The notes beneath the pieces are model-generated. The model did not search any database, had not been told where the DNA came from, and saw only the letters and a list, made by a program, of their open reading frames with translations. From contig OZ024747.1 in the NCBI GenBank assembly GCA_964016885.1, forward strand, positions 75,020,001 through 75,084,000: DNA of 64,000 nt. Reading direction: 5' to 3'. This stretch comes from Eledone cirrhosa. Taxonomy: Eukaryota. Of the stretch, positions 6,272 to 60,711 are shown piece after piece (position 1 is the stretch's first letter; the number at the start of each line of letters is the position of its first letter). A program made the translations under genes and the position numbers.

Positions 6272-6769
6272 CGTAAAATGATGATGATGATGTGTATATA
6301 TATGTATATATATATATATACATATATATATATGTATATATATGTATGGATATATATGTATATGTACGTATATATGTATATATATATATATGCATTTATT
6401 CTTTGTTATTACCATAATATGGATTTTGTATTTTAGTACAATTTTCAGACATTTTTTTTCCTTCTGATATTTGGAAATCAACTAATTGAAATAACTGCTG
6501 AAATTTATTGAATAACAAAGATTAGACAATAGAGAATGTATTTCTAATTTCTTATTAAATTGCTTTCTGTGTTACCAACACCAGAAACAAGCAAAATATT
6601 TGTTAATTCTATCAATTTCTCTCACTCTTTTTTTCTTTTTCAGAATCTAGATTTATAGGAATTAACTTTTATTGAGTAAAGAATATAGAATTTGTCATTC
6701 ATAAACATTTATTTATGTTTTATCGTAGAGCCTCTTGTTATTAGATGGCTCCAGGTTTGCCCTGATTAA

Positions 6770-6989
6770 CCCTTTAGCATTCACATTATTCTATAAATAC
6801 TATTATATTTTCATGGTAAAGGCTTTACTTCACATAATTATCTCGCATAATATCGAATCTATGAGGTTTTGAAAGTATTTATTTTGAGAACAATACCTTA
6901 ACATCAGTTTAAGTGACCAGTTACAGCCAGTTTCAACAGAAAAAGGTAGAGAATTCTGGCCGGTTTTGGCTGGTTTGAACATTAAAGAG
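6770..6989. mobile_element. piggyBac-like MITE (TTAA-flanked)
   Basis: TTAA|CCCTTTAG...TTAAAGAG|TTAA. Copies at 16705-16922 and, inverted, 37397-37606. It interrupts another dispersed repeat (CCCTGA|TTAA|GCAAACATATGATCAAAGGC). Confidence 0.75.
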
Positions 6990-7519: not shown

Positions 7520-7837
7520 GGCACATGGCTTAGTGGTTAGAGCATTGGCCTTGCAATCGAAAGGTTGTGAGTTCAATTCTCAGACCGGGTGATGTGTTGT
7601 TTCCTTGAGCAAGACACTTTATTTCACATTGCTCCAGTTTACTCAGCTGTAGAAATGAGATGCATTCCACTACAAAGTGGTCGTGGAGGTGCCACGGCAA
7701 AAAAGCACCCAGCACTCACTGTAAATGAGGTTGGTGTTAGGAAGGGCATCCAGCTGTAGAAATCAACCCAGCATCAGTTCCCGTCCCACCCTTGCAAGCA
7801 GGGAAAAAGCGGACGTAAAATGAAATGATGATGATGA

Positions 7838-7841
<4 letters not shown>
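7520..7841 (+). mobile_element. Full-length tRNA-derived SINE with an RTE-family-A 3' tail
   Basis: A box TGGCTTAGTGG, B-box-like GAGTTCAATTCT and body CCTTGAGCAAGACACTTT. About 7675-7780 matches the family A LINE 3' UTR; then a terminal hairpin and (GAT)n tail. Flanked by (TA)n on both sides. Confidence 0.88.
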
Positions 7842-7875
<34 letters not shown>

Positions 7876-8274: not shown

Positions 8275-8366
8275 CATACTCTGCTCTATGAGAGCATCGA
8301 GTGCTCAAATGGCCTACCGCATATGGATGCTTTAAGCATCCAACACCAATTATAATATATATATAT

Positions 8367-9278
8367 ACAGCAACCAGCAAACAGCCACAGGAAACAAGTA
8401 CCACCAATCTCTGGGAGGGCTCTGTAGAAACAGTAGACAGCTTCTGCTACCTAGGTGACCGAATTAGCAGCGGAGTTGGGTGTTCAGAAAGTACAATAAC
8501 TAGGGTAAGAACGGGATGGAAGAAGTTTAGGGAACTACTACCACTGCTCGCTGCAAAAGGCTTCTCCCTCAGAATGAAAGGCAGACTGTATGATGCGTGT
8601 ATCCGAACAGCAATGTTGCATGGTAGTGAGACCTGGGCGCTGAAGGTGGAAGACTTACGTAGATTAGAGAGAAACGAAGCCTGCATGCTCCGATGGATGT
8701 ATAACAGTAATATACGTGAACGACAAAGCATAAATGAATTGAGAGAGAGACTGAGCATAAGAGGAATCAAATGCTGTGTGCAGGAGAGGCGGTTGCGCTG
8801 GTATGGACATGTGATGCGTATGAAGGATGATAGCTGCATAAAAAGGTGCAGAGCACTAGAAGTCGATGGAAACCGCGGAGTGGGGAGACCCAAGATGACC
8901 TGGGATGAGGTGATAAAAGCCGACCTCTGGCGTCGCGCAGTAATACAGAGTACCCGACCTCCCATGGGTACAAGCTGAAGCATATAGACAATATGCCCCC
9001 ACACCCTCCCACCGCAAGGTGGTCGTGGAGGTGCCACGGCAAAAAAAGCACCCAGCCCACACTGTAAAGTGGACGTGTAGGCGCCACGAAAAAGCACCCA
9101 GCACTCACTGTAAATGAGGTTGGTGTTAGGAAGGGCATCCAGCTGTAGAAATCAAGCCAAATCAGTTCCTGTATGAGCAAGGCATGGTCAGCCGACCAGA
9201 CACTGCCCACAACGGACAACCTGTCTAACCCATGCTAGCGTGGAAGAACGGACGTAAAACGGTGGTGATGATGATGAT
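8367..9278 (+). mobile_element. 5'-truncated RTE-type LINE, family A
   Basis: C-terminal ORF part (FCYLG..MLHGSETW..RRLRWYGHVMR..GRPKMTW), 3' UTR and (GAT)n tail. Near-identical to about 59745-60711 apart from an in-frame deletion near 8925. (TA)n on both flanks. Confidence 0.93.
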
Positions 9279-9465
9279 ATATATATATATGAAAAATGTA
9301 TAATTTCCACAACAATAACTAAACACTTAACACATGTACAGAGTTCTTCTCATGATGTTCTCGTGTTTCTAAGTACCTTTTAAAGAACTGGCCTCCTTAG
9401 TATTAATTTATGTGTTTCCCCAAACCTGGTATGGCACTGTTGTAGTAATTGGCCTTAGTAACTAC

Positions 9466-9555
9466 ATATATTGGGTTGTAACATAAATTCCCGCTGTTCT
9501 TTTTATTAAGAAGTTTTATAACAACGACAGGAATTTATGTTACGACCCAATATAT
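9466..9555. mobile_element. Small palindromic MITE, Tc1/mariner-like
   Basis: 26-bp inverted repeats ATATATTGGGTTGTAACATAAATTCC / GGAATTTATGTTACGACCCAATATAT with TA-rich ends. Superfamily is inferred. Confidence 0.6.
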
Positions 9556-10097
9556 TAAGACTACTGTATCTACTGTTTTTAAAGAGACACAGGGTGTTAT
9601 CTGAAGGAAATTTGGCAGCTATTTTTCATATGTTGAGCAACCATATGGATGTTTTCTCTCGTTACCTCCTTACTGTAGATGTTGATATTAAGATATTAAT
9701 AGTTTGATGGTGTTTGTCTTGTCATTAATATCAAATTTCAAATGAATTGACCATAATTCTTTATAATATTTCTTCAGTGAAGTGAGGTTAAATATATTTC
9801 TAACATATGACCTTTTACCACTTCACTTAACTATGTGAAGTGATCATTTCATTTTTACTTAAAACCTGCAGCTAGAAATCCTCTAAACGGTACTTCTGAC
9901 ATCTTTAAGTGGAATATAATTCAATCGGTGTAATTTCTACAGTGGAAAAATAAAAATGATCTAATCAATGTTATTGACAAATTTCTGTCTCCTTCAGTGT
10001 TAAATCATTTTAAAAGATATTTAGAGAATGTTAAGTAATTCTTGAAAAAAATTAAGATATATATTTTTTATTACTATTTATTATTATTATTATATAT

Positions 10098-11880: not shown

Positions 11881-13502
11881 TCATCATCATCATCGTTTAA
11901 CGTCCATTTTCCACGCTAGCATGGGTCTGGACGGGAATTGTCCCACTTGAGGCAAGATTGGTTGTCTTGCTCAGGACTCTCTGGCGGGTTTTCTACGGCT
12001 GGTTGCCCTTCCTAACACCAACCAGATTTACAGTGTGGACTGGGAGGTTTTTACCGTGTTACCTACATGGCCACATTACAGCGTGGACTGTGTGTTTTTT
12101 TTGTCGTGACACCTACACGACCTCGTTTATTTAGGACTGGATGTTGTGGTACCAACATAGCTTTACATCGAAAGGGGTGGTGTAGATGGTGGTAGGGTTA
12201 GTGCCTACTGACTGTAGGTTTCGCTTTGTACTTAGGCAAGGTGGGTCTTCTGTATTACTACGTAGCGCCAAAGATCTCGGTCCAGTGACATTGTCTTGGA
12301 GAGGTGTAAGTGTGTGAGGTCTGAATTTATCAGCTCGTCCCAGGTTTTTCTGGGTCTGCCTACTCCGTAGCTACCGTCTATTTTGATCGCCCTGCACTTT
12401 TTTATACAGCTGTCATCTTTTATGCGCATCACGTAACCAAACCAATGTAGTCTTCTCTCGAGTAAACAGCATCTGATCCCTCTTATTCCTAATTTCTCAC
12501 TTAGTTCATTTATGCTCTGCCGTTTGCGTATATTACTATTACACATCCAATGGAGCATGCAAGCTTCGTTCCTCTCCAGTCTGCGTATATCCTCTGCACA
12601 CAATGCCCAGGTCTCACTGCCATGTAACATCGCTGTTCGTATGCAGGCATCATACAGCCTGCCTTTTATTTTTAGAGAGAAACCTTTAGTGGCCAATAGT
12701 GGTATAAGCTCTCTGAACTTTTTCCGTCCTGTTCAGACTCTAGCTACAGTACTTTCGGAGCACCCTCCACCACTGCTGATTTTGTCACCCAGGTAACGGA
12801 AGGTGTCCACTATTTCTATAGAACCATCTGGGCAATGGAATGAGCTTGTATTCTGTGGGCATTTGCTGCTACTTATTGCACCAGAGCACCGGCCACATAT
12901 AAAATCTATATTCTTAGTTACCTTACCTGTGATCCCACTACATCTTTTATGCACCCATACTTTGCATTTGGGACATAAAATGGAGTTTCTACCTACTCCT
13001 TTCCTACACACTGAGCATGGCCATTTCCCAGATGGGACCAGTGCCCTATTCTCCTTCCTACATATTAGAACTTTAGACAAGTTAATTTTAAGGCCTTTTG
13101 ATTCTAGGCCATGCTTCTATGTTTGGAATTTCTTCTCTAGTTCAGCCATTGATTCGGCTATGAGCATTAGATCATCTGCGTATAGAAGTTCCCATGGGCA
13201 GCTGGTCTTGAGCTCCTCCGTTATAGCTTGGAGGGCGATAATAAATAGGAGGGGGCTAAGGACGGAGCCCCGATGAACACCAACTTTTGCACTAAACTCT
13301 TCACTATATTCGTTGTTAATTCTAACCTTGCTGACTGTTTCATTATATATGGCTTGTATAGCTCTCACAAGCCATTAATCTACACCTAATTTTCTAAGAG
13401 CCCACCAGATAATGGAGTGGGGGACTCTGTCAAAGGCTTTCTCCAGGTCTACAAAAGCTAAGTAGAGGGGTTTACTTTTAGCTAGGTACTTCTCCTGTAG
13501 TT
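11879..13502 (-). mobile_element. 5'-truncated, decayed RTE-type LINE, family B (older variant)
   Basis: RT fragments (GVHRGSVLSPLLF, YADD, PHD finger, RRLHWFGYV) broken by stops. (CAT)n tail at 11879 and (TA)n on both flanks. Confidence 0.93.
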
Positions 13503-18325: not shown

Positions 18326-20100
18326 TCATCATCATCATCATCATCATCAACGTTTAACGTCCGTGTTCCACGCTTGCATGGGTTTGGACGGGGGTAGTCC
18401 CACTTGAGGCAAGAGTGATTGTCTTGCTCGCATAGGACTGTCTGGCAGATTTTCTACAGTTGGATGCCCTTCCTAACACCAACCACATTTACAGTGTGGG
18501 TCTGGGAGGTTTTTACCGTGTTGCCTACACGGCCACATTACAGCGTGGACTGTGTGTTTTTTTGTCGTGACACCTACACGATCTCGTTTGTTTCGGCCTG
18601 GATGGCGCGGCACCAACATAACTTTACATGGAACGGGGTGGTGTGGATGGGGTGGGGGTGGTGGCGGGACGGGGTGTAGTTTGTTAGAGATGCCTACTGG
18701 CAAGGCGGGTCTTCTCTGTTACTGAGTACCGCCAAAGGTCACGGTCCAGTGACATTGTCTTGGAGAGGTGTAAGTGTATGAGGTCGGAGTTTATCAGCTC
18801 ATCCCATGTTTTTCTAGGTCTGCCTATTCCGTGGCTACCGTCTATCTTTATTGCCCTGCACTTTGTAATACAGCTATCGACTTTCATGCGCATCACGTGT
18901 CCATACCAACGCAGCCTTCTCTCGAGTAAACAACATCTGATCCCTCTTATCTCTAATTTTTTCCTTAGTTCGTTTATGCTTTGCCGTTCACGTATATTAC
19001 TGTTACACATCCAGCGGAGCATGCAAGCTTCGTTCCTCTCTAGTCTGCGTATATCCTCTGCACACAATGCCCAGGTCTCACTACCATGCAACATTGCTGT
19101 TCGTATGCAGGCATCGTACAACCTGCCTTTCATTTTTAGGGAGAACCCTTTAGCAGCTAACAGTGGTATAAGCTCTCTGAACTTTTTCCAACCAGTTCTG
19201 ACTCTAGCTACAGTACTTTCAGAGCACCCTCCCCCACTGCTGATTTTATCGCCCAGGTAACGGAAGCTGTCCACTATTTCTATAGAACCCTCTGCGCAAT
19301 TGAAAGAGCTAGTATTTTGTGGGCACTTGCTGCTACTTATTGCACCAGAACATCGGCCACATGTAAAGTCTATGTTCTTAGTTAGCTTACCTGTGATCCC
19401 ACTACATCTTTTATGCACCCATACTTTGCATTTAGGACATAAGATGGAGTTTCTACCTACGCCTTTCCTACATACCGAGCACGACCATTTCCCAGAAGGG
19501 ACCGCCGCCTTGTTTTCTTTCCTACAAACTAGAACTTTGGTCTTAGCCAGGTTAATTTTAAGTCCTTTTGACTCTAGGCCGTGCTTCCATGTTTGGAATT
19601 TCTTCTCTAGCTCGGCCATTGATTCCGCTATGAGTGTCAGGTCGTCTGCGTATAGGAGTTCCCATGGGCAGCCTGTCTTGAACTCCTCTGTTATAGCCTG
19701 AAGGGCAATAATAAATAGTAGGGGGCTGAGAACAGAGCCCTGATGGACGCCAACTTTTACGCTAAACTCTTCACTATATTCGTTGTTAATTCTAACCTTG
19801 CTGACTGTTTCTTTATACATGGCTTGTATAGCCCTCACAAGCCATTCGTCAACGCCTAGTTTTCTAAGAGCCCACCAGATAATGGAGCGGGGGACTCTGT
19901 CGAAGGCTTTCTCCGGGTCGACAAAAGCTAAGTAGAGGGGTTTACCTTTAGCTAGGTACTTCTCCTGTAGTTGTCGTACTATGAAAAGAGCGTCTGTGGT
20001 GCTTTTGCCTGACACAAACCCGAACTGCATTTCATCTAGATCAATTCTCTCTCTGATTAGTTGCGCTATTACTTTTTCCGTGACCTTCATGACCTGGTCG

Positions 20101-29385: not shown

Positions 29386-29608
29386 ACCCAGCCCACACTG
29401 TAAAGTGGACATGTAGGTGCCACGGAAAAAAGCACCCAGCACTCACTGTAAATGAGGTTGGTGTTAGGAAGGGCATCCAGCTGTAGAAATCAAGCCAGAA
29501 TCAGTTCCTGTATGAGCAAGACAAGGTCAGCCGACTGGACACTGCCCACAACAGGACAACCCGTCTAACCCATGCTAGCGTGGAAGAACGGACATAAAAC
29601 GATGATGA

Positions 29609-29612
<4 letters not shown>
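29386..29612 (+). mobile_element. 3'-UTR-only copy of the family A LINE
   Basis: Matches about 9050-9278; (GAT)n tail; TA flanks. Confidence 0.9.
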
Positions 29613-29649
<37 letters not shown>

Positions 29650-29667
29650 TATATGTATATACATACA

Positions 29668-29780
29668 CATCATCATCATCACCGTTTTACGTCCGTTCTT
29701 CCACGCTAGCATGGGTTAGACGGGTTGTCCTGTTGTGGGCAGTGTCTGGTCGGCTGACCATGCCTTGCTAATACAGGAAC
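29668..29780 (-). mobile_element. 3'-end-only copy of the family A LINE, tail-to-tail with the previous copy
   Basis: Reverse complement of about 29504-29612. Confidence 0.9.
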
Positions 29781-30394
29781 ACACACATATATATATATAT
29801 ATATACATACACATATATATATATATATATATATGCATAGCCAATAAAAACACATGCACATGTTGGTTTTCACTTCAATTTATTGGTTGGTTCAGTAACC
29901 AGATGGTTTTTTATATATTGTCAAAGCTCTTTTGTCACACATTCTGTGACCTCCTCACTGGCTGGGTTTTTATATATATAATGATCATCACTGTTTAAAT
30001 TGTGAATTGTAGAAATACTTTGTCAGGAATGTTCAACATTCACCACAATGCTAATGATAACAAGTGTCTTTACTGGTAGACAAATTGTTGTAAACATTTG
30101 TATTGTTGGTGTAATAAATTAAAATTTTTAATGTGATGTAAGTTGTCTTGCCAATGTGGTTTAATGAAGTACAGCATGTTAAAAGTTACAGGCAATTTAG
30201 CTATTGTTACAAGCAAGTCATGTAAACCTTGTAGAGAAGATCCTTCATTGGATCCTCTCAAATAGATAAATTTTGGCTGAGGCGTCACTCATTCGATTAG
30301 TCTAGTGGAAGAAAATTGTTGTTATGAATGTTTAGTGAGAAAATATGGTGTCAATAACAGACATAGTAATGGAGTTGTAAAGATAGTGTTACTG

Positions 30395-33599: not shown

Positions 33600-34335
33600 C
33601 TATTGCAATATCTTCTTCATACTCTAGATGTGAAAGACAGGATATTTGGCACCACACAGTAACATCCTGTTCAGGGGCTGGGCCAGCTCTCAATGCCCAA
33701 GTTTGGTGCTAGTCCTTCCAGGATCTTCAATATGTATATCAGTGCGTACCTCTCCCGTCTTCGTTCCAAGGAGTAGAGGTTCAGTTCTTTTAGCCTCTCC
33801 CAGTAGCTTATCTCCTTCATTGTGGCAATCCTCTTGGTGTAGCTTCATTAGATTGCTTCAAGCTCCATGGTTAGTTTAACACTATGGGGTGACCACAGCT
33901 GGGAGCAATAGTCCAGTTAACTTAGGACAAATGTCCTCCATAGTACCAACATAGTTTCTTGGTCTTTTCTTTTGAAGTCCTCAATATCCAACCAGCGAGT
34001 CGTCTGTACATTGTCATTTTCATGTGTAAATAAAACGATGCATCATCACTCATGTCTATACCCAGGTCTTGTATCGATTTCAACACAGGGATTTCAATCC
34101 CTCCTGGTCTGGTGTAGCTTTGTTGTACTGTCCTTATGTTTGCAGATTGATATTGTAGGGCTTGAAATTTTCCAGCTTTAAATTGCATGTTGTTGTCCTC
34201 AGTCCATTTGTATATGGCATCCAGATCTTGTTGTAAAAGGGCAGCATCAGCCGGGTTCTTCATTGCCTGTGCTACCTTTGTGTCATCAGCATAGGTTGTG
34301 AGGGATGTTGTATGTACTACAGAGGGTATGTGAGA
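33600..34335 (-). pseudogene. Decayed CR1-group LINE RT fragment
   Basis: YADDTKV..LQQDLDAIYKWTEDNNMQF..KFQ..DLGI motif within ORF 33922-34461; frameshifted downstream. Confidence 0.8.
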
Positions 34336-34499
34336 GAACCACCAAAAACATATGAGAGAGAGGGAGAGTCTGTGGCACTGAGACCAAGGAGACCACTCAT
34401 CATGGGCGTATTCAATACATGGGGAGATGCAGAGTGGGTAAAATCCTGACAATGGTGCCAAGTGGTTGGGATTTACCTATTTCTTTCTATATATACACA

Positions 34500-38624: not shown

Positions 38625-41600
38625 TCATCATCATCATCATCATCATCAACGTTTAACGTCCGTGTTCCACGCTTGCATGGGTTTGGACGGGGGTAGTCCC
38701 ACTTGAGGCAAGAGTGATTGTCTTGCTCGCATAGGACTGTCTGGCAGGTTTTCTACAGTTGGATGCCCTTCCTAACACCAACCACATTTACAGTGTGGGT
38801 CTGGGAGGTTTTTACCGTGTTGCCTACACGGCCACATTACAGCGTGGACTGTGTGTTTTTTGTCGTGACACCTACACGATCTCATTTGTTTCGGCCTCGA
38901 TGGCGCGGCACCAACATAACTTTACATAGAACGGGGTGGTGTGGATCGGGTGGGGGTGGTGGTGGTGGGACGGGGTGTATTTTGTTAGAGATGCCTACTG
39001 GCTGGAGTAGGTTTTACTATATATTTAGGTAAGGCGGGTCTTCTCTGTTACTGAGTACCGCCAAAGGTCTCGGTCCAGTGACATTGTCTTGGAGAGGTGT
39101 AAGTGTGTGATGTCGGAGTTTATCAGCTCGTCCCAGGTTTTTCTAGGTCTGCCTATTCCGTGACTACCGTCTATCTTTATTGCCCTGCACTTTGTTATAC
39201 AGCTATCGACTTTCATGCGCATCACGTGTCCATACCAACGTAGCCTTCTCTCGAGTAAACAACATCTGATCCCTCTTATCTCTAATTTTTTCCTTAGTTC
39301 GTTTATGCTTTGCCGTTCACGTATATTACTGTTACACATCCAGCGGAGCATGCAAGCTTCGTTCCTCTCTAGTCTGCGTATATCCTCTGCACACAATGCC
39401 CAGGTCTCACTACCATGCAACATTGCTGTTCGTATGCAGGCATCGTACAACCTGCCTTTCATTTTTAGGGAGAACCCTTTAGCAGCTAATAGTGGTATAA
39501 GCTCTCTGAACTTTTTCCAACCAGTTCTGACTCTAGCTACAGTACTTTCAGAGCACCCTCCCCCACTGCTGATTTTATCGCCCAGGTAACGGAAGCTGTC
39601 CACTATTTCTATAGAACCCTCTGCGCAATTGAAAGAGCTAGTAGTTTGTGGGCACTTGCTGCTACTTATTGCACCAGAGCACCGGCCACATGTAAAATCT
39701 ATGTTCTTAGTTAGCTTACCTGTGATCCCACTACATCTTTTATGCACCCATACTTTGCATTTAGGACATAAAATGGAGTTTCTACCTACGCCTTTCCTAC
39801 ACACCGAGCACGACCATTTCCCAGAAGGGACCGCCGCCTTGTTTTCTTTCCTACAAACTAGTACTTTGGTCTTAGCCAGGTTAATTTTAAGTCCTTTTGA
39901 CTCTAGGCCGTGCTTCCATGTTTGGAATTTCTTCTCTAGCTCGGCCATTGATTCCGCCACGAGTGTCAGGTCGTCTGCGTATAGGAGTTCCCATGGGCAG
40001 CCTGTCTTGAACTCCTCTGTTATAGCCTGAAGGGCAATAATAAATAGTAGTGGACTGAGAACAGAGCCCTGATGGACGCCAACTTTTACGCTAAACTCTT
40101 CACTATATTCGTTGTTAATTCTAACCTTGCTGACTGTTTCTTTATACATGGCTTGTATAGCCCTCACAAGCCATTCGTCAACGCCTAGTTTTCTAAGAGC
40201 CCACCAGATAATGGAGCGGGGGACTCTGTCGAAGGCTTTCTCCAAGTCGACAAAAGCTAAGTAGAGGGGTTTACCTTTAGCTAGGTACTTCTCCTGTAGT
40301 TGTCGTACTATGAAAAGAGCGTCTGTGGTACTTTTGCCTGACACAAACCCGAACTGCATTTCATCTAGGTCAATTCTCTCTCTGATTAGTTGCGCTATTA
40401 CTTTTTCCGTGACCTTCATGACCTGGTCGATTAATTTAATGCCTCTATAGTTACTCCTATCTAGGGCGTCTCCTTTACCCTTATAACAGTTAACGATGAT
40501 GCTGCTATGCCAGTCCTTCGGAACAACCCCATTCTGTACGACTTGGTTAACTATGCGGGTGACCATGGTGTGTCCCACCGTGCCAGATGCCTTCAGCATC
40601 TCAGCAACTATTTCCGAAGGCCCAGCCGCCTTACCAGTCTTCATATCCTTGATTGCCTTACTTATTATACTCCCCTCGACTAACACTGCTGGTCCCTCTA
40701 TTGGGTCGATATGGGGGAGACTGCCTTTCTCCCAATTATTCTCCTCATTTAGTAGCCTTTCATAGTGACACTTCCAAGCTACCTTCTTATCAGCGTCGGT
40801 GATGGCAAGTGTGCCATCGTCGTTTAGTACACACTTCTCCCCGACAATATCACGGTTTTCCTTGACGCATTGCCTAGCAATCCTGAACACCTCACGTTTT
40901 TGGTCATCGCGTTGTAGAACATGCTTGAACTTTCTTTCCTCAGCTTCCCTTCTTGCTAAGTACACTTGTCTCCTAGCTTCCCTCCTGGCCACTTGATAGT
41001 CCTCTCTACTTCCCCCATCCCGCCATACTTTCCAAGCCTGCTTTTTGGCCTGAATTGACCCCTCCACCTTACTGTTCCACCACCATGTTACTCTCCTCCT
41101 GCCTACAGGCCTGCTCCAGCCACAGACCTCGTCTGTCGCCAACAGCAGGTTTGCTTTCAGAAATTCCCACTCTCCCTCTATATTGTCCGACTCTAAATGT
41201 TCTTCCTTACTGTCGAAAGCATCAAGTAATATGCTTTGAAATTTATTCCTGGCTGTGGGGTCCTTTAGCTTCCATATTTTCCTCCTGAGGATAGTCCTCT
41301 TCTGTTGTCGAGTACGTCTCGTCCTGACTATGAGGTCGCTAATTATCAGTCTATGTTGGGAGGTGCATTCTTCATGGGGGAGGGATTTAGTGTTAACAAC
41401 AGACACTCTGTCACGTCTTCTGGTAAGGATATAATCTACCTGGCTTGTGTGTTCCCCGGATCTATAGGTGATCAGGTGATTGTCACGTTTTTTGAAGTTA
41501 GTGTTACAGATAGTTAGGTTATTTGCATCACAGAATTCCAGGATTCTGGAGCCTTCCTCATTTCTAGTACCAAACCCATAGCCTCCATGGATTTCGTCGT

Positions 41601-42608
41601 AGCCATCACAATGTTGTCCAACGTGACCATTTAGGTCGCCTGCGATAATTATATAGTCACTGTCGGATATTTGGGAGGTAGTTAGCATCAGTGTCTCATA
41701 GAATCTGTCTTTTATAGTGCCGGGCAGTCCGGATTGGGGTGCGTACGCAGATATTACTGTCACCGTAGTTCTATTGAGGACAAGTCGTATTTTAATTATT
41801 CTGTCGTTCACTCTATTTACGTCTATTATCTTATCTGCCCACTTTTCTGCTACCATGATTCCTACTCCACCCAGCCCATCGTCGTTTCCCACCCAGAAAA
41901 GCTTATAACATCGTTTTTTACCCTCAATGAACCTAGCAGACCCACCCCTCCACCTGGTCTCTTGAATACAACAAACATCGACCTCCTTACGTTCAAGCAT
42001 TTCTACAACCTCGTTAGCGCGACCCTTTAGGGTGCCTACATTTATGGTACCAACTCTGAAGTTTTGGATTGCGTTTGGGGGTTGGGGGCGGTGAGGGGCG
42101 GGGGGCGATGGGGTTATGTTAGCCGTCCGCGGTCGAAACAATGAGGAGTGCTCGCATTCTCGTCCAAGAGGTGAATTTGTCTTTATCTTTGGCATTGTCG
42201 CTGAGCGTCCAGATTTTTCTCTCTCACCTCCACTCTCCAGGATTCCGCAGTCCATCCATCCATCATATATCGTATATCGAAAGGCAACCAGGCAAGCGAT
42301 AGTATAGGCCTCTGGTTTCTGATTGGTCCGCGTAATAATACTGGTGATGCGTGGGGGCTCTGTTTTATGATTGGTCCACGTAATAGCAATGGTGGTGCGT
42401 GGGGGTGGGAGGGAGGGGTGTTGGGTAGCTAGCAAGAAGGTAATGATTGAATGGGGTCCTTGCATTTAACAAGCGATTAACAAAAATACAAAATTTGTTC
42501 TGTTAAATACGTCCAAAAACTTACGTATTTAGCAATTAATAGAAACAGAAAATGTAGTTTGTTTTAGCGATAGATTGGCTATTTGGACTTGATACGAAAT
42601 ATGGTGTG
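38625..42608 (-). mobile_element. Near-full-length RTE-type LINE, family B, intact ORF
   Basis: 5' region with repeated monomers, single APE+RT ORF, about 400-bp 3' UTR and (CAT)n tail. Both flanks are (TA/TG)n. Confidence 0.96.
39025..42465 (-). CDS. LINE polyprotein: AP endonuclease + reverse transcriptase with inserted PHD finger
   Basis: APE motifs GTINVGTL, CIQETRW, SAYAPQ, AGDLNGH, QVDYIL and SQHRL. RT motifs NYRGIKL, QFGF, FVDLEKAFDRV, GVHQGSVLSPLLF, YADD and FRYLG. RTE-type C-terminus RRLRWYGHVMR..GRPRKTW. The real start may be the ATG at 42195 (MPKIK), where similarity to the second copy begins. Confidence 0.95.
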   Translation of the reverse strand: MQGPHSIITFLLATQHPSLPPPRTTIAITWTNHKTEPPRITSIITRTNQKPEAYTIACLVAFRYTIYDGWMDCGILESGGEREKSGRSATMPKIKTNSPLGRECEHSSLFRPRTANITPSPPAPHRPQPPNAIQNFRVGTINVGTLKGRANEVVEMLERKEVDVCCIQETRWRGGSARFIEGKKRCYKLFWVGNDDGLGGVGIMVAEKWADKIIDVNRVNDRIIKIRLVLNRTTVTVISAYAPQSGLPGTIKDRFYETLMLTTSQISDSDYIIIAGDLNGHVGQHCDGYDEIHGGYGFGTRNEEGSRILEFCDANNLTICNTNFKKRDNHLITYRSGEHTSQVDYILTRRRDRVSVVNTKSLPHEECTSQHRLIISDLIVRTRRTRQQKRTILRRKIWKLKDPTARNKFQSILLDAFDSKEEHLESDNIEGEWEFLKANLLLATDEVCGWSRPVGRRRVTWWWNSKVEGSIQAKKQAWKVWRDGGSREDYQVARREARRQVYLARREAEERKFKHVLQRDDQKREVFRIARQCVKENRDIVGEKCVLNDDGTLAITDADKKVAWKCHYERLLNEENNWEKGSLPHIDPIEGPAVLVEGSIISKAIKDMKTGKAAGPSEIVAEMLKASGTVGHTMVTRIVNQVVQNGVVPKDWHSSIIVNCYKGKGDALDRSNYRGIKLIDQVMKVTEKVIAQLIRERIDLDEMQFGFVSGKSTTDALFIVRQLQEKYLAKGKPLYLAFVDLEKAFDRVPRSIIWWALRKLGVDEWLVRAIQAMYKETVSKVRINNEYSEEFSVKVGVHQGSVLSPLLFIIALQAITEEFKTGCPWELLYADDLTLVAESMAELEKKFQTWKHGLESKGLKINLAKTKVLVCRKENKAAVPSGKWSCSVCRKGVGRNSILCPKCKVWVHKRCSGITGKLTKNIDFTCGRCSGAISSSKCPQTTSSFNCAEGSIEIVDSFRYLGDKISSGGGCSESTVARVRTGWKKFRELIPLLAAKGFSLKMKGRLYDACIRTAMLHGSETWALCAEDIRRLERNEACMLRWMCNSNIRERQSINELRKKLEIRGIRCCLLERRLRWYGHVMRMKVDSCITKCRAIKIDGSHGIGRPRKTWDELINSDITHLHLSKTMSLDRDLWRYSVTEKTRLT

Positions 42609-45630: not shown

Positions 45631-45949
45631 ATATCTATACATATGTGTATGTACATAATTACATATATATATATATGTACATAATTACATATATATATAT
45701 GTATATATATATATGTATATATATATACATACATACATACATACATAGTGTGTTTATTTGGAATGGTGGTGGTGGGGTCTTTAGAAGAGTTACACCGCAT
45801 CCCTGTGTGCCATATGAGGCAACTAAAAGGGTTGGTGTGAGGAAGGACATCTGGCTGTAAAACATTGTCCCAAAACATCCCATCCAACCACGCCAGCCTG
45901 GAAAAGTGGACGTAATAATATATAATGTTGATGATGATAATGAAATTCA

Positions 45950-52426: not shown

Positions 52427-55400
52427 TCATCATCATCATCATCAACGTTTAACGTCCGTGTTCCACGCTTGCATGGGTTTGGACGGGGGTAGTCCCACTT
52501 GAGGCAAGAGTGATTGTCTTGCTCGCATAGGACTGTCTGGCAGGTTTTCTACAGTTGGATGCCCTTCCTAACACCAACCACATTTACAGTGTGGGTCTGG
52601 GAGGTGTTTACCGTGTTGCCTACACGGCCACATTACAGCGTGGACTGTGTGTTTTTTTGTCGTGACACCTACACGATCTCATTTGTTTCGGCCCGGATGG
52701 CGCGGCACCAACATAACTTTACATAGGACGGGGTGGTGTGGATGGGGTGGGGGTGGTGGTGGTGGGACGGGGTGTATTTTGTTAGAGATGCCTACTGGCA
52801 AGGCGGGTCTTCTCTGTTACTGAGTACCGCCAAAGGTCTCGGTCCAGTGACATTGTCTTGGAGAGGTGTAAGTGTGTGAGGTCGGAGTTTATCAGCTCGT
52901 CCCAGGTTTTTCTAGGTCTGCCTATTCCGTGGCTACCGTCTATCTTTATTGCCCTGCACTTTGTTATACAGCTATCGACTTTCATGCGCATCACGTGTCC
53001 ATACCAACGTAGCCTTCTCTCGAGTAAACAACATCTGATCCCTCTTATCTCTAATTTTTTCCTTAGTTCGTTTATGCTTTGCCGTTCACGTATATTACTG
53101 TTACACATCCAGCGGAGCATGCAAGCTTCGTTCCTCTCTAGTCTGCGTATATCCTCTGCACACAATGCCCAGGTCTCACTGCCATGCAACATTGCTGTTC
53201 GTATGCAGGCATCGTACAACCTGCCTTTCATTTTTAGGGAGAACCCTTTAGCAGCTAATAGTGGTATAAGCTCTCTGAACTTTTTCCAACCAGTTCTGAC
53301 TCTAGCTACAGTACTTTCAGAGCACCCTCCCCCACTGCTGATTTTATCGCCCAGGTAACGGAAGCTGTCCACTATTTCTATAGAACCCTCTGCGCAATTG
53401 AAAGAGCTAGTATTTTGTGGGCACTTGCTGCTACTTATTGCACCAGAACACCGGCCACATGTAAAATCTATGTTCTTAGTTAGCTTACCTGTGATCCCAC
53501 TACATCTTTTATGCACCCATACTTTGCATTTAGGACACAAAATGGAGTTTCTACCTACGCCTTTCCTACACACCGAGCACGACCATTTCCCAAAAGGGAC
53601 CGCCGCCTTGTTTTCTTTCCTACAAACTAGAACTTTGGTCTTAGCCAGGTTAATTTTAAGTCCTTTTGACTCTAGGCCGTGCTTCCATGTTTGGAATTTC
53701 TTCTCTAGCTCGGCCATTGATTCCGCTATGAGTGTCAGGTCGTCTGCGTATAGGAGTTCCCATGGGCAGCCTGTCTTGAACTCCTCTGTTATAGCCTGAA
53801 GGGCAATAATAAATAGTAGGGGGCTGAGAACAGAGCCCTGATGGACGCCAACTTTTACGCTAAACTCTTCACTATATTCGTTGTTAATTCTAACCTTGCT
53901 GACTGTTTCTTTATACATGGCTTGTATAGCCCTCACAAGCCATTCGTCAACGCCTAGTTTTCTAAGAGCCCACCAGATAATGGAGCGGGGGACTCTGTCG
54001 AAGGCTTTCTCCAAGTCGACAAAAGCTAAGTAGAGGGGTTTACCTTTAGCTAGGTACTTCTCCTGTAGTTGTCGTACTATGAAAAGAGCGTCTGTGGTAC
54101 TTTTGCCTGACACAAACCCGAACTGCATTTCATCTAGGTCAATTCTCTCTCTGATTAGTTGCGCTATTACTTTTTCTGTGACCTTCATGACCTGGTCGAT
54201 TAATTTAATGCCTCTATAGTTACTCCTATCTAGGGCGTCTCCTTTATCCTTATAACAGTTAACGATGATGCTGCTATGCCAGTCCTTTTGGAACAACCCC
54301 ATTCTGTACGACTTGGTTAACTATGCGGGTGACCATGGTGTGTCCCACCGTGCCAGATGCCTTCAGCATCTCAGCAACTATTTCCGAAGGCCCAGCCGCC
54401 TTACCTGTCTTCATATCCTTGATTGCCTTACTTATTATACTCCCCTCGACTAACACTGCTGGTCCCTCTATTGGGTCGACATGGGGGAGACTGTCTTTCT
54501 CCCATTTATTCTCCTCATTTAGTAGCCTTTCATAGTGACACTTCCAAGCTACCTTCTTATCAGTGTCGGTGATGGCAAGTATGCCATCATCGTTAAGTAC
54601 ACACTTCTCCCCGACAATATCACGGTTTTCCTTGACGCATTGCCTAGCAATCCTGAACACCTCACGTTTTTGGTCATCGCGTTGTAGGACATGCTTGAAC
54701 TTTCTTTCCTCAGCTTCCCTTCTTGCTAAGTACACTTCTCTCCTAGCTTCCCTCCTGGCCACTTGATAGTCTACTCTACTTCCCCCATCCCGCCATACTT
54801 TCCAAGCCTGCTTTTTGGTCTTAATTGACCCCTCCACTTTACTGTTCCACCACCATGTTACTCTCCTCCTGCCTACAGGCCTGCTCCAGCTACAGACTTC
54901 GTCTGTGGCCAACAGCAGGTTTGCTTTCAGAAATTCCCACTGTCCCCCTATATTGTCCGACTCTAAATGTTCTTCCTTACTGTCGAAAGCATCAAGTAAT
55001 ATGTTTTGAAATTTATTTTTGGCTGTGGGGTCCTTTAGCTTCCATATTTTTCTCCTGAGGATAGTCCTCTTCTGCTGTCGAGTACGTCTCGTCCTGACTA
55101 TGAGGTCGCTAATTATCAGTCTATGTTGGGAGGTGCATTCTTCATGGGGGAGGGATTTAGTGTTTACAACAGACACTCTGTCACGTCTTCTGGTAAGGAT
55201 ATAATCTACCTGGCTTGTGTGTTCCCCGGATCTATAGGTGATCAGGTGATTGTCACGTTTTTTGAAGTTAGTGTTACAGATAGTTAGGTTATTTGCATCA
55301 CAGAATTCCAGAATTCTGGAGCCTTCCTCATTTCTAGTACCAAACCCATAGCCTCCATGGATTTCGTCGTAGCCGTCACAATGTTGCCCAACGTGACCAT

Positions 55401-58016: not shown

Positions 58017-58869
58017 TCATCATCATCATCATCATCAACGTTTAACGTCCGTGTTCCACGCTTGCATGGGTTTGGACGGGGGTAGTCCCACTTGAGGCAA
58101 GAGTGATTGTCTTGCTCGCATAGGACTGTCTGGCAGGTTTTCTACAGTTGGATGCCCTTCCTAACACCAACCACATTTACAGTGTGGGTCTGGGAGGTTT
58201 TTACCGTGTTGCCTACACGGCCACATTACAGCGTGGACTGTGTGTTTTTTTGTCGTGACACCTACACGATCTCATTTGTTTCGGCCTCGATGGCGCGGCA
58301 CCAACATAACTTTACATAGAACGGGGTGGTGTGGATCGGGTGGGGGTGGGGGTGGTGGGACGGGGTGTATTTTGTTAGAGATGCCTACTGGCTGGAGTAG
58401 GTTTTACTATATATTTAGGTAAGGCGGGTCTTCTCTGTTACTGAGTACCGCCAAAGGTCACGGTCCAGTGACATTGTCTTGGAGAGGTGTAAGTGTGTGA
58501 GGTCGGAGTTTATCAGCTCATCCCATATTTTTCTAGGTCTGCCTATTCCGTGGCTACCGTCTATCTTTATTGCCCTGCACTTTGTTATACAGCTATCGAC
58601 TTTCATGCGCATCACGTGTCCATACCAACGTAGCCTTCTCTCGAGTAAACAACATCTGATCCCTCTTATCTCTAATTTATTCCTTAGTTCGTTTATGCTT
58701 TGCCGTTCACGTATATTACTGTTACACATCCAGCGGAGCATGCAAGCTTCGTTCCTCTCTAGTCTGCGTATATCCTCTGCACACAATGCCCAGGTCTCAC
58801 TGCCATGCAGCATTGCTGTTCGTATGCAGGCATCGTACAACCTGCCTTTCATTTTTAGTGAGAACCCTT
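58017..58869 (-). mobile_element. 5'-truncated family B LINE
   Basis: ORF 58415-58852, 3' UTR of the 38625 subtype, (CAT)n tail and TA flanks. Confidence 0.95.
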
Positions 58870-59376: not shown

Positions 59377-60711
59377 ATAGTCCTGCAGGCAATAACGGAG
59401 GAATTTAAGACCGGATGCCCATGGGAACTCCTGTATGCTGATGACCTCGCACTCATAGCTGAATCTATGATAGAACTAGAGAATAAATTCCAAACCTGGA
59501 AGCAGGGACTAGAGAGAAGGGGTCTCAAAGTCAACATGACAAAGACTAAGGTCCTTGTAAGTAGACGAGAAAACAGAACCCAGATCCCCTCAGGGAAATG
59601 GCCTTGCTCAGTATGTAGGAAAGGTGTAGGTAGGAACTCCATTCTCTGCCCCAAATGCAAACAATGGGTACACAAGAGATGTAGCGGGATCTCAGGAAGC
59701 TTAATTAAGAATGTAGGATTCACATGCAGCAGCTGTGCTGAAACAGCAAGCGGCAAACAGCCACAGGAAACAAGTACCACCAATCTCTGGGAGGGCCCTG
59801 TAGAAACAGTAGACAGCTTCTGCTACCTAGGTGACCGAATTAGCAACGGAGATGGGTGTTCAGAAAGTACAATAACTAGGGTAAGAACGGGATGGAAGAA
59901 GTTTAGGGAAATACTACCACTGCTAGCTGCAAAAGGCTTCTCCCTCAGAATGAAAGGCAGACTGTATGATGCGTGTATCCGAACAGCGATGTTGCATGGT
60001 CGTGAGACCTGGGCGCTGAAGGTGGAAGACTTACGTAGATTAGAGAGAAACGAAGCCTGCATGCTCCGATGGATGTGTAACAGTAATATACGTGAACGAC
60101 AAAGCATAAATGAATTGAGAGAGAGACTGAGCATAAGAGGAATCAAATGCTGTGTGCAGGAGAGGCGGTTGCGCTGGTATGGACATGTGATGCGTATGAA
60201 GGATGACAGCTGCATAAAAAGGTGCAGAGCACTAGAAGTTGATGGAAACCGCGGAGTGCGGAGACCCAAGATGACCTGGGATGAGGTGATAAAAGCCGAC
60301 CTTACCCAATTACACCTCTCAAAGACAATGACACACGACCGTGATTTCTGGCGTCACACAGTAATACAGAGTACCCGACCTCCCATGGGTACATGCTGAA
60401 GCATATAAACAATATGCCCCAACACCCCTCACTGCAAGGTGGTCGTGGAGGTGCCACGGCAAAAAAAGCACCCAGCCCACACTGTAAAGTGGACGTGTAG
60501 GCGCCACGAAAAAGCACCCAGCACTCACTGTAAATGAAGTTGGCGTTAGGAAGGGCATCCAGCTGTAGAAATCAAGCCAGATCAGTTCCTGTATGAGCAA
60601 GGCATGGTCAGCCGACCAGACACTGCACACAACAGGACAACCCGTCTAACCCATGCTAGCGTGGAAGAACGGACGTAAAACGGTGATGATGATGATGATG
60701 ATGATGATGAT
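59377..60711 (+). mobile_element. 5'-truncated RTE-type LINE, family A
   Basis: Open frame from IVLQAITEEF through YADD and the PHD finger to the stop at 60399, then 3' UTR and (GAT)n tail; TA flanks. Confidence 0.95.

Follow-up and report, generated by a model that had tools for sequence, protein, structure and literature searches.

Results

LINE families in the window

The window (the whole stretch of DNA analysed, 64,000 nucleotides of the Eledone cirrhosa contig OZ024747.1) contains copies of two families of RTE-like LINEs, designated A and B, and a CORE-SINE with a tRNA head. Family A is represented at 8292-8978 (forward strand) by the C-terminal part of its open reading frame (ORF), in a 5'-truncated copy with an internal deletion, and family B at 39025-42465 (reverse strand) by a single uninterrupted ORF of 1146 amino acids, which encodes an APE endonuclease (Exo_endo_phos), a reverse transcriptase (RVT_1; RT) and, after the RT, a PHD finger; this family B copy is probably a recent insertion. 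A fragment of a different RT-like frame at 33922-34476 (reverse strand) is possibly part of a CR1-type LINE. The family A element ends in (GAT)n as originally claimed, in the form of a (GGT)2(GAT)n microsatellite inserted in a (TA)n run (9255-9278, forward strand), and its transcripts, judged from the DNA, would carry no poly(A). A short microsatellite 3' end of this kind is a known RTE trait in the accessible text of PMC6007223, and the designation RTE-like rests on this end and the ORF layout; a different octopus RTE is described in the accessible part of PMC9115989.

Layout of the 3' UTR module

The original prediction placed a run of four tandem H-type pseudoknots (PK1 to PK4) in the 3' UTR of family A. 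All four sets of letters are present as described at 9023-9118 (forward strand), where the module begins 45 nt past the ORF stop at 8978, with the corresponding run of family B at 38879-38782 (reverse strand) and one PK1+PK4 pair in the SINE at 7681-7729, which bears out the sharing of the motif between LINE and SINE. Their number has to be read differently, as the run consists of two copies of a 48-nt unit, each composed of one predicted knot of type PK-A and one of type PK-B. In unit 1 (forward strand, as is unit 2), PK-A (PK1, 9023-9052) has stem 1 UCGUG/CACGG, stem 2 GGUGC/GCACC and an A-rich loop 3, and PK-B (PK2, 9053-9072) has CAG/CUG crossing CCAC/GUGG with UAAA as loop 3. In unit 2, stem 2 of PK-A (PK3, 9074-9098) is weakened by a fixed C.A mismatch, and PK-B (PK4, 9099-9118) has CAG/CUG crossing CUCA/UGAG and contains the sole significantly covarying pair. 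Because PK1/PK3 and PK2/PK4 are duplicates, the four knots are not four independent observations.

A further two-unit module of family A lies at 60443-60538 and a 5'-truncated family A tail beginning at PK2 at 29386-29612 (both forward strand); directly behind the latter, inverted and in the same TA run, is a short family A tail at 29660-29785 (reverse strand). The family B module (38782-38879) has two units with a decayed third unit upstream (38880-38925), and further family B modules are found at about 12028-12118, 18489-18579, 52584-52674 and 58177-58267 (all reverse strand).

The knots of family A sit about 135-230 nt from the 3' end of the element and are followed by an anchor hairpin and a 3'-terminal stem-loop. 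The anchor (9119-9158, forward strand) pairs GUUGG/CCAGC, and its loop could pair GGC/GCC with downstream sequence, a crossing stem that would make a possible fifth knot. The hairpin itself (9119-9143) is 92-97% paired per position in 253 copies, with one-sided changes only. The anchor is nearly invariant across animals, and in 11 metagenome loci it stands behind other upstream sequence with no PK unit; by eye, the sequences preceding it in these loci of other animals form knot-free hairpins. Another element in the window (45795-45910) also has a different upstream motif before the same anchor, and a similar motif occurs in most of the metagenome loci (L084-L094). The anchor motif was not found in the paper texts or SINE supplements searched, and no match to a named SINE domain was obtained. 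The terminal stem-loop (9221-9254, forward strand) has CCAUG/CGUGG inside CGUCY/GGACG, and its CCAUG/CGUGG in the LINEs becomes CCUUG/CAGGG in the SINE with pairing kept.

Unit number and abundance

Among 137 anchored elements, counted in tiles that total 1.24 Mb and were chosen independently of any motif pattern, with 5'-truncated copies scored as one unit, 61 have one unit, 74 have two and 2 have three. The SINE and the old families carry one unit, families A and B carry two, and minisatellite runs reach up to 20 (the largest array has 20.1 copies). A 46-mer that bridges PK4 and the hairpin after it gives 35,618 exact matches in the 3.0-Gb genome, against 0 for the control. In the usual SINE form PK1 is joined to PK4, for which the simplest account is that one unit was lost; both units are kept in some SINE copies. 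The old-family unit adjoining the anchor is also present on contigs of two other organisms.

Minisatellite arrays built from the unit also occur, with repeats of 48, 49 and 61 nt and copy numbers of up to 20 or more, and some of these arrays are still joined to a LINE tail (L046:327-1291; L032 at about 6420-6940; G000:C2 near 25,783,500 and 13,316,200). In a subfamily of family B, a 110-nt duplication runs from PK2 to the anchor, the whole block being repeated (L026 at about 9450-9560; L003; L043; L079).

Shuffling and folding energies

Under a strict H-type grammar, unit 1 (PK1+PK2) forms a chain of two abutting knots, and the same chain was seen in 0 of 2000 dinucleotide shuffles; the two-knot chain of the SINE unit was seen in 1 of 2000, and the reverse-complement control gave a chain of one only. 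In the whole modules the longest chain is two and not four, because PK3 fails the strict pairing grammar in both A and B, and a chain of this length was reached in 4 of 1000 shuffles for family A and 27 of 1000 for family B. The C.A mismatch is the master state of PK3 in family A (GGCGC in 34 of 44 copies), while GGTGC and GGCAC account for 4 of 44 each, the equal counts being the pattern predicted by CpG decay. The copy at 29386 does have the GGTGC first noted for it, an apparent repair of PK3, but it also breaks stem 1. In family B the in-register stem 2 of PK3 is broken in 48 of 49 copies and a shifted 3-bp AGG/CCU remains.

In rough energy estimates, every one of the ten knots computed is more stable than its own best hairpin when the knot penalty is 7 kcal/mol and coaxial stacking is added, whereas at a penalty of 9.6 this is true of PK1 of family A alone and the other nine are no more stable. 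A stem 1 of 3 bp would probably not hold as a hairpin by itself. Nested folding of the whole tails, which is a measure blind to knots, is not unusual (z of +0.64 for A and -1.44 for B).

Covariation among LINE families

Compensatory changes across families were part of the original prediction. Pair-keeping changes between families do occur in PK-A stem 2 and PK-B stem 2, but significance is confined to 1 of 19 pairs. For this analysis 372 units were parsed on fixed sequence anchors from 1.43 Mb, with metagenome loci and five overlapping loci set aside, and the 255 distinct rows were evaluated with an R-scape-like statistic against tree-based nulls. The significant pair is the centre of PK-B stem 2, changing from A-U to U-A; it ranks at the top of 1128 column pairs (p=0.0008), with E=0.016 over the 19 pairs and E=0.95 over all pairs, and it marks a single lineage. 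Covariation in both interleaved stems, as originally expected, therefore amounts in these LINE and SINE-tail units to one pair of PK-B stem 2, the other 18 of 19 pairs being not significant; power is low because most of the other proposed pairs barely vary.

Where PK-A stem 2 has GGAG for GGUG, 59 of the 75 matches listed (out of 2,597 genome-wide; hand tally) carry U as the partner base, 14 carry A and 2 carry C, which indicates one compensated family and one uncompensated subfamily (GGAG/CACC, 14 of the 75 matches listed). Pair 5 of the same stem is C-G in family A, U-G in family C and U-A in family B. The junction pair of PK-B stem 2 in 30 loci of old families is T:A in 19, C:G in 4, T:G in 2, C:A in 4 and T:T in 1 (Fisher p=0.033, on the 29 loci bearing G or A), and among the matches listed genome-wide (72 of 1,329; hand tally) it is T:A in 46, T:G in 8, C:G in 8, C:A in 6, T:T in 3 and C:T in 1. 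A compensated PK-B stem-1 subfamily (CGG/CCG), sought genome-wide in family A/C context, yielded 1 match only. Changes in PK-A stem 1 fall on CpG sites and were discounted, since CpG decay can produce them. Taken alone, the letters of the LINE families lend the knots modest support.

A related fold in the CORE domain of SINEs

The SINE at 7521-7842 (forward strand) has an A/B-box-like head followed by a CORE that by eye closely resembles that of BivaCORE-SINE2, which identifies it as a CORE-SINE; then come one PK-A + PK-B unit (7681-7729), the anchor and the terminal stem-loop. A second PK-B-like motif lies in the 3' half of its CORE domain (7635-7659, forward strand). In 56 CORE copies parsed at fixed offsets, all stem 1 pairs are present in 52 and at least 4 of the 5 pairs of stem 2 in 51; older CORE families have stem 1 extended to CCAG/CUGG and a longer A loop. 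In most SINE copies the CORE knot and PK-A are separated by an 11-bp hairpin (L074, L079, L035), which is deleted in the window copy.

The same fold can be read by eye in published consensus sequences. The accessible material of PMC5804259 gives 11 CORE families, 9 of them with this 3' half. For stem 1, five decapods have CUG/CAG, Limulus has CAG/CUG, Patiria CUC/GAG and Aplysia CAC/GUG, and Stylophora (Styp) has a U.U mismatch; stem 2 is ACCCA/UGGGU or ACCUA/UAGGU, with 4 of 5 pairs in Homarus. BivaCORE-SINE2 (accessible part of PMC4824008) has CAG/CUG with ACUCA/UGAGU, and MIR1_AMi and MAR1 (accessible part of PMC5786205) have CAG/CUG with CCCCA/UGGGG and CUCA/UGAG. Stem 1 pairs fully in 11 of these 12 consensus sequences, the first two loops are 3 and 1 nt in all of them with no gaps, and two-sided changes, counted by eye, are found at five pairs, of which two belong to stem 1 and three to stem 2.

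Prokaryote assemblies scanned with the 5' CORE box alone yielded 11 apparently contaminant animal loci, of which 3 have this CORE 3' half and pair in every case, 1 is cut short and 7 have another 3' half. The three copies have CUC/GAG or CUC/GGG with ACCCA/UGGGU; singly they are not beyond shuffles (7-20%), and their weight lies in the shared register. The pairing predicted for the CORE is thus seen in the window SINE, in animal DNA from contaminated assemblies and, across five more phyla, in consensus sequences taken from the literature. Viral contigs searched with the CORE box and with the anchor gave 0 matches each. As a side observation, GTDB bacterial genome records contain animal-type CORE-SINE copies, apparently as host contamination, with 7 loci in one Nitrospirales MAG (L196-L206).

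A PK-B-type knot is accordingly a prediction of the pairing model for the CORE of SINEs from corals to mammals. The CORE domain (MIR, MAR1, BivaCORE-SINE2, OR1-type) resembles the LINE module in a 3' half compatible with the PK-B fold, in many cases again with CAG/CUG and a UAAA-like loop, but differs in its first two loops, which measure 3 and 1 nt where those of the LINE measure 1-2 and 0-1 nt, and in carrying no PK-A. Stem 1 and loop 3 are the same in both and loops 1 and 2 are shorter in the LINE; a motif of 20 nt cannot tell descent from convergence. The CORE knot has CUCA/UGAG as well and might be the source from which family A copied its switch to these letters.

Discussion

The sequence comparisons support a pseudoknotted module in the LINE 3' UTR that is common to the SINE. 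The knot fold appears best supported for PK-B, through the two-sided changes in both stems of its CORE version across phyla, and moderately for PK-A, and we consider it likely that the knots form in RNA, PK-B more surely than PK-A.

We propose that the two tandem 48-base units in the 3' UTR of these RTE-like LINEs would each give rise to two compact H-type pseudoknots whose third loop is rich in A, and that these knots may dock ribosomes or host proteins, which would keep the transcript stable and near newly made reverse transcriptase. One intact unit is likely enough, and spare copies would be free to decay, as in PK3, or to grow into minisatellites. As a whole, this explanation is given a probability of roughly one half. 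Its functional part is put forward more tentatively: by analogy, docking on the translation machinery rather than RT recognition may be the job of the knots, at somewhat below even odds. The occurrence of the fold both in the UTR of a coding element and in non-coding SINEs with different LINE partners suggests that the partner is a host factor and not one particular RT, and its presence in non-coding SINE bodies means that a pure translation role would be insufficient.

Recruitment of the RT by the knots was also suggested originally. In its surviving form, the knots would fold and offer the RT protein encoded by the LINE itself a second point of contact further upstream, comparable to the vertebrate R2 pseudoknot, and this is consistent with the retention of one unit together with the anchor and the tail in the SINE, and with the pseudoknot contained in vertebrate A-clade R2 3' UTRs according to the accessible text of PMC12503042. 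We nevertheless regard it as unlikely, as the element has a separate terminal stem-loop that keeps its pairs from LINE to SINE, belongs to a known kind of LINE recognition structure (accessible text of PMC4176376) and is the better candidate, being by analogy the likely RT recognition element; moreover, CORE-SINEs with unrelated LINE partners still keep the fold (PMC4758252 and PMC11481361, in the parts accessible).

Slightly less probable still is the view that only simple hairpins matter (PK-A stem 1 and PK-B stem 2), the crossing stems being conserved sequence motifs and the tandem run having arisen as a side effect of duplication of the minisatellite kind. The weak formal covariation, the decayed PK3, the arrays of up to 20 units, the marginal knot energies and the knot-free hairpins seen by eye before the anchor in other animals all agree with it. 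It is opposed by the crossing stem of the CORE version, where stem 1 occurs in four variants and changes are two-sided, and by the two-sided changes in PK-A stem 2.

The arrangement of compact knots in tandem in the 3' UTR is similar to that of duplicated viral nuclease barriers, a likeness that would favour a role of the knots as xrRNA-like barriers or as barriers to 3'-5' decay that prolong RNA life. Reverse-strand 5' ends counted in 30-nt windows number 139 in the window upstream of PK1, 196 in that on PK3/PK4 and 128 in that on the anchor; the listed truncation ends are spread out, 28 local ends are likewise free of an edge, and AT microhomology confounds the 1.4-1.5-fold excess over PK3/PK4, which was given no weight. 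The originally suggested exonuclease block thus finds no support in a 5'-3' form, the ends showing no sharp edge at either side of the module, and the barrier role in general is improbable, given that there is no Rfam match and no truncation edge just 5' of the module, the latter being an indirect test, and only of a 5'-3' block whose products retrotranspose.

If the docking of folded units on ribosomes or host proteins is correct, the tandem module in the 3' UTRs of autonomous LINEs could, on a view we hold only tentatively, represent a device by which animal retroposon RNAs in general dock on ribosomes or host factors, and a candidate source of the CORE among LINEs. According to the accessible text of PMC5804259, the conservation of SINE central domains across phyla is "a major enigma", and none of these domains has been found in LINEs. 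A fold of 20-25 nt with two-sided changes in both stems makes this puzzle directly testable and would extend to the MIR-type repeats of mammals. For LINEs with no templated poly(A), the knots are a candidate for keeping the RNA on ribosomes.

Comparison with known systems

Nothing in the window reached the gathering score of an Rfam model, only chance matches were obtained at E<=10 on both tails, and the self-cleaving ribozyme models of Rfam gave no match. No description of a pseudoknot in RTE 3' UTRs or the CORE was found in the literature open to search, and no such knot is mentioned in the accessible portions of PMC5723415, PMC4758252, PMC11481361 and PMC6887750.

The 3' stem-loop of stringent LINEs and their partner SINEs (ZfL2; plant RTE/Au) is of the same kind as the stem-loop at 9221-9254 (PMC4176376 and PMC6007223, accessible text); compared with those tails, the knot module is an extra upstream element. 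Vertebrate A-clade R2 also has a pseudoknot in a non-LTR 3' UTR (PMC12503042, accessible text) but is of a different clade, and the LINE knots are arranged in tandem at a distance from the 3' end, with a separate terminal stem-loop behind them. The upstream pseudoknot domain of tobamoviruses (TMV PK1-3) has small, directly stacked 3' UTR pseudoknots, the arrangement predicted for the LINE module, and no templated poly(A) (PMC4683447; bioRxiv 10.1101/2025.10.12.681957; both as far as accessible). Removal of the TMV run lowers reporter translation about 8-fold and the element binds ribosomes, as stated in the accessible part of the bioRxiv report, and PMC4683447, in its accessible text, cites poly(A) substitution and eEF1A binding as well as one case of failed substitution. 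The LINE module, unlike that of TMV, is a duplicated two-knot unit in a retrotransposon host with no Rfam match and no tRNA-like 3' domain seen, the knots being followed by the hairpin region, the terminal stem-loop and (GAT)n, so the likeness to tobamoviruses is architectural only. The module is real, probably folded and, with two knots per unit, smaller than originally claimed; it would represent a known structural kind in a new setting.
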